Shown piece after piece: positions 62,042 to 64,000 of a DNA stretch of 64,000 bases. Location of the stretch: assembly GCA_900544345.1 (NCBI GenBank), contig UQUR01000002.1, forward strand, positions 47,160 through 111,159, given 5' to 3'. The first letter of the stretch is position 1. Every line of letters begins with the position of its first letter. The DNA is from an uncultured Sutterella sp. Lineage in GTDB: Bacteria; Pseudomonadota; Gammaproteobacteria; Burkholderiales; Burkholderiaceae_F. A program made the translations under genes and the position numbers. Under the pieces are notes generated by a model, which saw nothing but the letters and a program-made list of their open reading frames with translations, searched no databases and had not been told where the DNA came from.

Positions 62042-62387
62042 TTTTCTAACCAAAAATAAAAGGACAAAAATACTTAATAGACAAAGAAAACTTTGTCCGG
62101 CTCAAACAATTAGATTGTACTGTAATTAGCCGATGAGTCGACGTTTTTTCTAATCTTTTTTTCCACTTTAGTACCTGATCCAAACGCTTTTTTTGGTATT
62201 CGGCCAATAAGGAAAAATCCCTAGGTGTTTTCGTGGAGCTTCTAAGTAGTTTGGCGTAGTATCTTTGTCGGCCGATTTTGCTCGACCGATCGGCAGAACC
62301 GATCTGAACATTATGAGGAGTTTTACCACAAGTTCCGTAAAGCCTCGGCATTAATGCGGGGATATAAGGATCGCCGATTTTAATCGG

Positions 62388-62799
62388 CTATTGAGGCATA
62401 TTCTGCTGCTCAATATACTGCTTAATGATCGATAGCGGTGCACCTCCACAGCTGGCTGCAAAGTACGATGGTGACCACAGTGCTCCTTTCCATAGTTGTT
62501 TTTGAATACTCTCATGGCCCATGCGTCGAATCATTCGACTGGATACTCCCTTGAGACTGTTAACCAGTTTCGCTACAGAGACTTTTGGCGGATACCTCAC
62601 CAATAAATGCACGTGATCATTTTCTCCATCAAACTCTACCAGCTCACTTTCAAAATCCTGACACACTGAATCAAAGGTATCCCTTATCCGCAAGGATTTC
62701 TTTCGTAAAGACTTTCCGTCTGTATTTTGTCACGAAGACCAAGTGCACATGCATCTGAAATACACAGTGCCTGCCATGCCGAATTTCAGATTCACTCAT
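62388..62799 (-). pseudogene. tnpA: IS200/IS605 Y1 (HuH) transposase TnpA, interrupted by a frameshift
   Basis: The N-terminal piece MSESEIRHGRHCVFQMHVHLVFVTKYRRKVFTKEIL... carries the HuH motif HVHLV and stops at 62671. The C-terminal piece ...RIRDTFDSVCQDFESELVEFDGENDHVHLLV...GALWSPSYFAASCGGAPLSIIKQYIEQQ carries the catalytic Tyr region and is in the +1 frame. The break maps to about 62680..62695 and is consistent with a 1-nt insertion near CTTGCGG. Confidence 0.7.
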
Positions 62800-62838
62800 C
62801 TTGAATTCTCCCATATAGACCAAGTACAATTCTATCTC

Positions 62839-64000
62839 ATGTTGTTTCGCCAAGGTTTTCTCTTTAAGCTTAAACCCAACGGCCGTCAGGCACAATTAAT
62901 GTCTCGCTTTGCCGGCTGTTGCCGCTTTGTTTATAACAAGGGCTTAAGCTGGGCAAAAGAACAGTACGAAAAGAAAACCGGTCAACATCCCTCCTACAAA
63001 AATCTTTCTGCTTTATTGCCTGATTGGAAAAAAGATCCTGAAACGCTTTGGTTGTCTGAGTGCTACTCACAGTGCCTTCAGCAATCCATGAAGGATCTTT
63101 CCCGAGCGTATGCCAATTTCTTTTCGGGTCGAGCTGCATTTCCCGTATTTCACAGAAAGTTTGGATCATCAGACGGATTCCGTTATCCGCAGGGATTTAA
63201 AATCGATGAAACAGGTAAACAAATCTATTTGCCCGGTATCGGTTTTGTGAAGTACAGACGAAGCCGCTATATCGAAGGGAAAGCGAAAAATATCACCGTC
63301 ATTCGAAAAGCTGACGGTTGGTATGTCTCGGTTCAAACAGAATATGAAAAAGACATCCCTAAGCATGACGGTGATGAAGAAGGGATGGATATGGGAGTGG
63401 GGTGGTTTTGCACGCTCTCGGACGGAACACAGATTGCTCCGTGCAATGCGTTAAAAAAGCACTTAAAGAAATTGGCGCAATTGCAAAGGGCATTATCGAG
63501 AAAGGAGAAATTCAGCAGTAATTGGAAAAAAGCCCAAAGGAAGATCGCAAAGCTGCATCAGCGAATCGGCAATATTCGTCAGGACTTTATTAATAAAGTG
63601 GCGTTAGATTTGAGCAAAAAACACGCCGTGATCTACCGAGAAGACTTGAGAATAAAGAATATGACGGCCAGTGCTGCCGGAACGATAGAAGAACCGGGGC
63701 AGAATGTTGCGCAGAAAAGTGGCTTAAACCGAGCGATATTGGATCAAGGCTGGGGAAAGTTTTTCCAACGACTGCAGTGGAAGTGTGAACAAAGGGGCGG
63801 AATTGTCATTAAGGTGGCACCTCAATACACTTCCCGGACTTGTCCGATATGTGGGCATGAGTCAAAAGAGAACCGAAAGAGCCAAGCAAGTTTTAAGTGT
63901 GTGGCTTGCGGTTATCAGGGCAATGCCGACATAGTGGGGGCAAGAAATATAAAGGTGCGCGGGCAGCGCATGTCGGCCTGTGGGGAGCTCGGCGAGGTAG
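62839..64000 (+). CDS. tnpB: IS605-family TnpB (OrfB; RuvC-like RNA-guided endonuclease), 3'-truncated by the window end
   Basis: Absent from the supplied ORF track because it has no stop codon inside the window. The frame from the ATG 62839 is open to 64000 (387 codons): MLFRQGFLFKLKPNGRQAQLMSRFAGCCRFVYNKGL... It includes RuvC-like segments and a zinc finger (TCPICGHE...FKCVACGYQGNADIVGARNI), which is the typical TnpB architecture. Confidence 0.8.
   Translation, partial: MLFRQGFLFKLKPNGRQAQLMSRFAGCCRFVYNKGLSWAKEQYEKKTGQHPSYKNLSALLPDWKKDPETLWLSECYSQCLQQSMKDLSRAYANFFSGRAAFPVFHRKFGSSDGFRYPQGFKIDETGKQIYLPGIGFVKYRRSRYIEGKAKNITVIRKADGWYVSVQTEYEKDIPKHDGDEEGMDMGVGWFCTLSDGTQIAPCNALKKHLKKLAQLQRALSRKEKFSSNWKKAQRKIAKLHQRIGNIRQDFINKVALDLSKKHAVIYREDLRIKNMTASAAGTIEEPGQNVAQKSGLNRAILDQGWGKFFQRLQWKCEQRGGIVIKVAPQYTSRTCPICGHESKENRKSQASFKCVACGYQGNADIVGARNIKVRGQRMSACGELGEV

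Follow-up and report, generated by a model that had tools for sequence, protein, structure and literature searches.

The window analysed here, a 64,000-nucleotide stretch of contig UQUR01000002.1 from an uncultured Sutterella sp., ends inside a mobile element that lies upstream of tkt, the transketolase gene. In this human-gut member of the Sutterellaceae, the element occupies the spacer between tkt and a small open reading frame (ORF), beyond which come rsmE and mgtE. Two divergent genes with start codons 39 bp apart make up its coding content: tnpA, for a Y1 HUH transposase, which is disrupted in this copy, and tnpB, for a putative RNA-guided nuclease. The locus is almost certainly one copy of a 1,809-bp insertion sequence (IS) of the IS200/IS605 family with ends organised like those of IS608. 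This assignment is based on Pfam, NCBIfam and PDB matches together with the architecture of the ends, and it upholds the classification given in an initial annotation made from the letters of the same DNA. The IS is real but ordinary, and its module of TnpB and guide RNA (ωRNA) is well formed and canonical.

The extent of the element was obtained by comparing copies. A scan with the TnpB sequence over one genome per species returned 25 loci, 14 of them at 80–99% nucleotide identity in gut metagenome-assembled genomes (MAGs) of Sutterellaceae, with Candidatus (Ca.) Aphodousia and uncultured Sutterella as hosts; a second scan, of metagenome contigs with a conserved 3′ motif, added 16 further loci. 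Homology among 12 independent insertions begins directly 3′ of TTTAC (62322–62326), so the element starts at 62327 and not at 62054, as had been proposed. Immediately before this point the 12 distinct left flanks read TTTAC in 11 cases and ATTAC in one, the core TTAC being present in 12/12. The DNA from 62042 to 62326 is native to the region upstream of tkt and is partly conserved in a relative, Ca. Aphodousia, that has no IS there; the distance from the tkt start codon (ATG 62041) to the left end is 285 bp, more than the 200 bp or so first estimated. The right end lies 135 nt beyond the window and was recovered from contig L030 (ENA ERZ1309167 NODE_13), which was found through a look-up of the exact Tkt protein; the same locus is present in many human-gut assemblies. 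L030 is 100% identical to window positions 50017–64000, including a 2-nt deletion in tnpA. At the right end, homology ceases at ...GGAGGATGTCAA in all copies, with at least 20 different sequences beyond; the flank in L030 reads TGGAAGTATCGTAAGCTTCA. The right flanks are mutually unrelated and do not repeat the left flank, which indicates insertion without target-site duplication. No further copies of the element were found within the window.

The plus-strand frame that opens at ATG 62839 remains open for 387 codons up to the last base of the window. The initial annotation had read it as a complete-looking tnpB absent from the list of ORFs, and this proved right: ORFs that run off the end were not listed, and in L030 the frame meets no premature stop past the window edge but closes at 417 amino acids (aa), 45 nt before the right end, with all catalytic residues present. 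The protein scores 336 bits against the NCBIfam model guided_TnpB (cutoff 100) and 271 bits against the narrower NF038281 (IS200_TnpB), under the cutoff of 425, and it matches the Pfam families HTH_OrfB_IS605 (residues 1–45), OrfB_IS605 and Cas12f1-like_TNB (residues 305–371). ISDra2 TnpB (8bf8) aligns with residues 3–373 (E 7e-46). In this alignment the split RuvC triad D184/E268/D364 and the zinc finger are intact. Across copies of tnpB, third codon positions vary in about 70% of codons compared with about 17% for first and second positions, a pattern that points clearly to purifying selection at the level of the family.

Automated gene calls do not fit the conserved start at 62839. An in-frame ATG lies 90 nt upstream (62749–62838), and gene callers give a 447-aa TnpB where tnpA is uncalled, as in L030; in other contigs TnpB is called as a 397-aa version from Met21. 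Only one plus-strand promoter-like site precedes tnpB; it stops 9 nt short of the ATG, which lacks a Shine-Dalgarno sequence, and the tnpB mRNA may therefore be leaderless.

A guide RNA overlapping the 3′ end of tnpB and the right end of the element had been anticipated, and comparison of the copies supports it. The ωRNA scaffold is expected to comprise the last ~185 nt of the element, from ~63950 to the right end. The nucleotide alignment is near invariant from ~63954: among eight copies, 60–87% of third codon positions are variable upstream of ~63950, and the last three 90-nt bins show 53%, 20% and 8%. RNAalifold folds the last 190 nt of 11 copies into 59 pairs in 7 helices. Eight of the pairs have compensatory changes; column shuffles give 1.9 (0 of 500 match the observed 8), and sliding the partners by 1–3 columns leaves none. 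The covariation of helix 7 is ambiguous because this helix is also the DNA hairpin attributed to TnpA binding; that does not apply to helices 3 and 6. The 3′-end structure agrees with what PMC8612924 outlines of the ωRNA arrangement. In the published arrangement the guide derives from the flank and the transposon-adjacent motif (TAM) is the target of TnpA (PMC10055086). The guide here would be the right flank TGGAAGTATCGTAAGC and the predicted TAM is TTTAC; no other match to the guide was found within the window. Sub-threshold Rfam matches at the right end were to HgcC and sot0042 only, and RNA families of this type, with a UUCA loop, have been described at tnpB 3′ ends (PMC4615843).

The two ends of the element have the parts expected of an IS608-like transposon. 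IS608 inserts 3′ of TTAC (PMC3201880); its left cleavage site is TTAC, its right one TCAA, and its guide tetranucleotides are AAAG and GAAT (PMC3201880, PMC5934647). All four tetranucleotides are found here at positions matching IS608, and their pairing is predicted. On the plus strand the left end reads TTAC, 16 nt ending in AAAG, the palindrome CCTCGGCATTAATGCGGGG and then the hairpin GCCGATTTTAATCGGC; the right end reads GAAT, the hairpin CCTCGCCGTTCACGGCGGGG and then AGGATGTCAA. Both ends carry imperfect palindromes, and the left and right subterminal hairpins resemble each other, that at 62343–62361 being likely to be the left hairpin bound by TnpA. The right hairpin is 10 nt from the end of the element, and the 60-nt right-end segment that contains it folds at z −4.4. 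TCAA ends 10 nt 3′ of the foot of this hairpin, the same spacing as in IS608, in which TTAC lies 19 nt 5′ of the left hairpin foot (PMC3201880, PMC5934647).

The initial annotation had offered two other palindromes, at 62373–62388 and 62271–62294, as candidate left-end hairpins. The first does lie inside the left end, although it is the palindrome at 62343–62361 that resembles the right-end hairpin. It is retained in derivatives of the element that lack tnpA, other copies carry a compensatory change in it (GCCGAT/ATCGGC to GCCAAT/ATTGGC), and IS608 likewise has potential secondary structure 3′ of its left imperfect palindrome (PMC3201880). The second is ruled out as a left-end hairpin, as it is outside the homology shared by the copies, in the native spacer, and folds like shuffled sequence (z −1.39). 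A CCGAT-rich stretch akin to it occurs in Ca. Aphodousia, which is IS-free at the site.

Table 1. Features of the insertion sequence, in window coordinates
Feature	Position	Strand	Basis or remark
TTTAC target site and transposon-adjacent motif (core TTAC)	62322..62326	+	abuts the left end, outside the element
Insertion sequence	62327..64000	+	first 1,674 of 1,809 bp within the window; right end extrapolated to 64135
AAAG, left DNA guide tetranucleotide	62339..62342	+	directly 5′ of the left hairpin foot; identical to the left guide (GL) of IS608 (PMC5934647)
Left subterminal imperfect palindrome (IPL) CCTCGGCATTAATGCGGGG	62343..62361	+	DNA fold; conserved in all copies; resembles the right-end hairpin
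Second left-end hairpin GCCGATTTTAATCGGC	62373..62388	+	DNA fold; overlaps the tnpA stop codon
tnpA, Y1 HUH transposase, disrupted	62388..62799	-	2-nt deletion at plus-strand position 62686
Promoter-like site for tnpB, TTGAAT-18-TACAAT	62801..62830	+	consensus scan only, weak; inside the 5′ end of tnpA
tnpB, codons 1-387 of 417	62839..64000	+	stop extrapolated to 64090-64092
RuvC motif I, Asp184	63388..63390	+	aligned to the Asp of GVDVG in ISDra2 TnpB
RuvC motif II, Glu268	63640..63642	+	aligned to the Glu of GTEHL in ISDra2 TnpB
Zinc finger CPICG...CVACG (CxxC...CxxC)	63841..63912	+	read from the frame; Pfam Cas12f1-like_TNB
RuvC motif III, Asp364	63928..63930	+	aligned to the Asp of DRDENAALNI in ISDra2 TnpB
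Predicted ωRNA scaffold, 5′ part	63950..64000	+	extends beyond the window by 135 nt, as far as the right end

The tnpA gene starts at ATG 62799, preceded by the ribosome-binding site GGGAGA, and its N-terminal frame ends at a stop at 62671–62673 after 42 codons. Its split into two frames near 62680..62695, already recognised in the initial annotation, is due to a 2-nt deletion at plus-strand position 62686, where a run of AAA has become A (CCCTTAAATCC became CCCTTATCC). We located this lesion in an alignment of the window, four other copies that carry tnpA, and the corresponding locus of MAG UMGS767 (L018, 99.5% identical). The intact allele, present in L018 and in 7/8 displayed conspecific contigs, encodes a 137-aa TnpA (...KEILADLRDTFD...); among more distant copies, L007 also keeps an undamaged tnpA. 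When the frame of the window itself, and not the L018 allele, is repaired by hand, the product matches Pfam Y1_Tnp over positions 1–121 of 121 (E 1e-44) and NCBIfam transpos_IS200 with 153 bits (cutoff 55). The best solved relative of TnpA is IS608 TnpA (2a6m, E 9e-22). In that alignment the HuH motif (DHVHLLV) falls on DHIHIL and the catalytic Tyr (KQYIEQQ) on KQYIENQ of IS608 TnpA, which puts both downstream of the lesion in the C-terminal piece and not, as had been thought, one in each piece; the HVHLVF of the N-terminal piece is the first β-strand. A programmed frameshift was ruled out, as sister alleles encode a single intact frame.

The deletion is carried only by L030, a SPAdes contig identical to the window, and reflects either a private event or a mistake in a low-coverage (4.7×) assembly, not a pattern. 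If it were an assembly or sequencing error, the element would be a fully autonomous IS in the same state as the intact alleles, and we regard this as quite possible, though short of an even chance. The k-mer coverage of the sole contig with the deletion is 4.7, the lesion shortens a homopolymer, neither L018 nor any of the seven other conspecific contigs has a lesion at the site, and L031 is intact yet 99.4–100% identical per 500-bp bin over the IS and 8 kb rightwards. Set against this, the lesion is the sole indel in ~5 kb of 98.5–100% identical alignment with L018 (window ~59,000–63,043), so the sequence is not generally noisy, and two-base deletions are uncommon as short-read assembly errors. 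The contig is also indexed under four samples, though these are perhaps re-depositions of one assembly.

The initial annotation had described a pattern of probably dead transposition beside a preserved TnpB. That apparent state is private to one low-coverage assembly, given the intact tnpA of the seven other contigs and UMGS767, and L028 shows the opposite decay, a 425-bp deletion (window 62828–63252) that removes the 5′ third of tnpB and leaves tnpA intact. Since both genes decay sporadically, the state of the window does not argue for selective retention of TnpB at this site.

Beyond this locus, the family is mobile: in Sutterellaceae MAGs and gut metagenomes its copies are followed by at least 20 distinct right flanks. 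MAG UMGS767 has a second right end of the element (L020). All eight conspecific contigs displayed carry the same insertion with identical left and right flanks, as do UMGS767 and three more contigs from metagenomes. L007 combines an intact tnpA with a broken tnpB.

Derivatives without tnpA, 1,406–1,416 bp long, occur at distinct sites in L002, L003, L006, L008, L009, L037, L044 and L048. In each, a 66-bp left end that retains both hairpins is joined through ~45 bp of different sequence to tnpB and the right end; in L002 and L006 tnpB is broken as well. L004 and L038 have a right flank in common (TCAAATCGAATTGGGC) and different left flanks, which suggests rearrangement or recombination between copies.

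To the right of ~59,000, and over 8 kb beyond the end of the window, the conspecific contigs (L026–L033 and L018) match at 98–100% identity. Between ~50,000 and 59,000, a region with genes for a permease, an M20 peptidase, an aminotransferase and EamA, identity falls abruptly to 75–88%, in a mosaic of blocks. The break coincides with the 3′ end of gap and looks like recombination with a deeply diverged haplotype. We considered whether this step from 80% to 99.5% identity near 59,000 was a sign that the IS had arrived by a recombination tract and rejected the idea, because the high-identity side is the species norm (98–100% for 13 kb) and the low-identity side a mosaic variable region. A gene pair encoding an 81-aa protein and a PemK toxin is present in L026 (16005–16557, near window ~56,000), L032 and L033 and absent from L030.

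On the tkt side, the interval between IS and tkt contains a minus-strand promoter-like site at 62141–62114, within a segment that is also conserved in Ca. Aphodousia. Because this site is untouched, a direct effect of the IS on tkt–gap transcription, which the initial annotation had raised, is unlikely; read-through from tnpA into tkt–gap is conceivable. On the other side, an ORF of 91–93 aa with no Pfam match starts ~30 nt past the right end (L026 7599–7874; L019 369–650), and the predicted ωRNA guide overlaps its leader. Ca. Aphodousia L001 conserves the synteny of tkt, rsmE and mgtE, and the 91–93-aa ORF is missing from its tkt–rsmE spacer.

If the element works as its family does, TnpA would bind both subterminal hairpins on the plus (top) strand and locate the cleavage sites through base pairing, AAAG with TTAC at the left end and GAAT with TCAA at the right. 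A single-stranded circle would then be excised and reinserted 3′ of another TTAC. TnpB would load an ωRNA made of the last ~185 nt of the element and ~16–20 nt of right-flank DNA (TGGAAGTATCGTAAGC...), and after excision the complex would cut the resealed donor joint, TTTAC plus right flank, which is predicted to read ...GAGGAGTTTTAC joined directly to TGGAAGTATCG... A sister copy would then serve to restore the element by homologous recombination. Because its tnpA carries the 2-nt deletion, the window copy could not excise itself, and with intact ends and tnpB it would be movable by TnpA from another copy.

Two accounts compete for why the insertion is found in every sampled strain. The first is that the copy is an inert relic fixed by descent, in which TnpB and ωRNA are idle and tnpB is intact for want of time to decay; we consider this doubtful but a serious contender. 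The insertion occupies the same site in every conspecific contig seen (the eight displayed, L018/L019, L042, L043 and L046), the empty junction was not found, and tnpA or tnpB has decayed in individual strains and relatives. Identity of the IS between strains (99.0–100% per 500-bp bin) is about that of the flanking housekeeping genes, so selection within the orthologous copy is not measurable. A relic sits less easily with the diverged copies, which show strong constraint on the TnpB protein as well as extra nucleotide constraint and compensatory changes in the 3′ RNA region, or with the full set of catalytic residues and the many distinct insertion sites of the family.

The second account, unlikely in our estimate and offered tentatively, is that TnpB and its ~185-nt ωRNA would form an active compact nuclease with a TTTAC TAM, whose cutting of the donor joint could explain the presence of the insertion in every sampled strain. 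The boundaries, domain content, intact catalytic residues, conserved and covarying 3′ structure, target motif and lesion distribution are observed here; expression, nuclease activity and a function in retention would follow by analogy with published work on ISDra2 and Geobacillus elements.

Several points weigh against the overall reading of the locus as an IS608-like element with a TnpB/ωRNA module. Between the left cleavage site and the hairpin foot there are 16 nt instead of the 19 nt of IS608. Three of eight full-length relatives in other genomes (L002, L006 and L007) have a broken tnpB, so the family is in decay even while it spreads. When the window region and a full copy were scanned against Rfam, no match passed the threshold. 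The boundaries come from comparing copies with one another and not from a filled and an empty site: the predicted empty junction, as the exact 24-nt donor joint, had 0 matches in metagenome contigs, and in the nearest IS-free genome, Ca. Aphodousia L001, the spacer is too diverged to align and does not fix the junction. Finally, one assay found no activity for the TnpB of IS608 itself (PMC10055086), which also favours an idle TnpB in a relic.

A third possibility, co-option by the host, in which tnpA read-through drives tkt–gap or TnpB–ωRNA regulates the small ORF ~30 nt past the right end, is very improbable: the insertion is fixed beside core metabolic genes, tnpA points towards tkt and the guide overlaps the leader of the small ORF, but the promoter-like site between IS and tkt is common to a relative without the IS at the site, in the filled site the TAM is across the element from the guide-matching flank, which leaves the ωRNA no TAM-adjacent target there, no other guide match lies within the window, and the RuvC residues are intact, unlike those of known TnpB-derived repressors, which are nuclease-dead.

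The importance of the locus beyond annotation is small. The analysis provides exact boundaries, a target motif, a guide position and a full TnpB for an IS608-like element, so far uncharacterised, that gut Sutterellaceae commonly carry, and the TnpB/ωRNA pair, with its predicted TTTAC TAM, is a possible candidate for genome-editing screens. The insertion, fixed across the species, is a possible natural test case for the transposon-retention model; if the nuclease account were true, it would be an example of TnpB-driven transposon retention in a natural population.

Among known systems, IS608 (ISHp608) of Helicobacter pylori is the closest in its transposition module. The two share a Y1 HUH TnpA, TTAC and TCAA cleavage sites, AAAG and GAAT guides each 5′ of a hairpin foot, a TCAA that ends 10 nt 3′ of the right hairpin, and an extra hairpin 3′ of the left imperfect palindrome. 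They differ in the sequences of the hairpins, in the left spacing (19 nt in IS608, 16 nt here), in the T favoured as a fifth base before TTAC in the Sutterella element (11/12 flanks) and in gene orientation, tnpA and tnpB being divergent in the Sutterella element. In IS608 the two genes point the same way, and those of IS605 and IS606 diverge.

For the nuclease module the reference is the TnpB–ωRNA complex of ISDra2 from Deinococcus radiodurans (PDB 8bf8, 8exa, 8h1j), with which the Sutterella protein shares the domain order, the RuvC D/E/D residues and the zinc finger; in both, the ωRNA is expected to come from the tnpB 3′ end and the right end, with a guide from the flank. The similarity is only moderate (bit score 160 over ~370 aligned residues), the Sutterella TnpB has a 15-residue insertion after RuvC motif II (TASAAGTIEEPGQNV...), and its ωRNA is unrelated in sequence and matched by no Rfam model. 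The predicted TAM also differs, TTTAC here as against the TTGAT of ISDra2. The sotRNA and HgcC families (Rfam RF02656 and RF00062), from the 3′ ends of IS1341-type tnpB genes, are archaeal and match far below threshold (25 bits vs 50 and 16 vs 88), but these RNAs, too, are sense to tnpB, overlap its 3′ end and the right-end hairpin, and have a TTCA (UUCA) loop like that of the right hairpin of the Sutterella element. The closest annotated relatives found for the protein are TnpBs on enterobacterial plasmids of Klebsiella and Salmonella, annotated as 'RNA-guided endonuclease TnpB family protein', which come from a different host order and share ~50% aa identity over 98–99% of the length, the C-terminal tail included.

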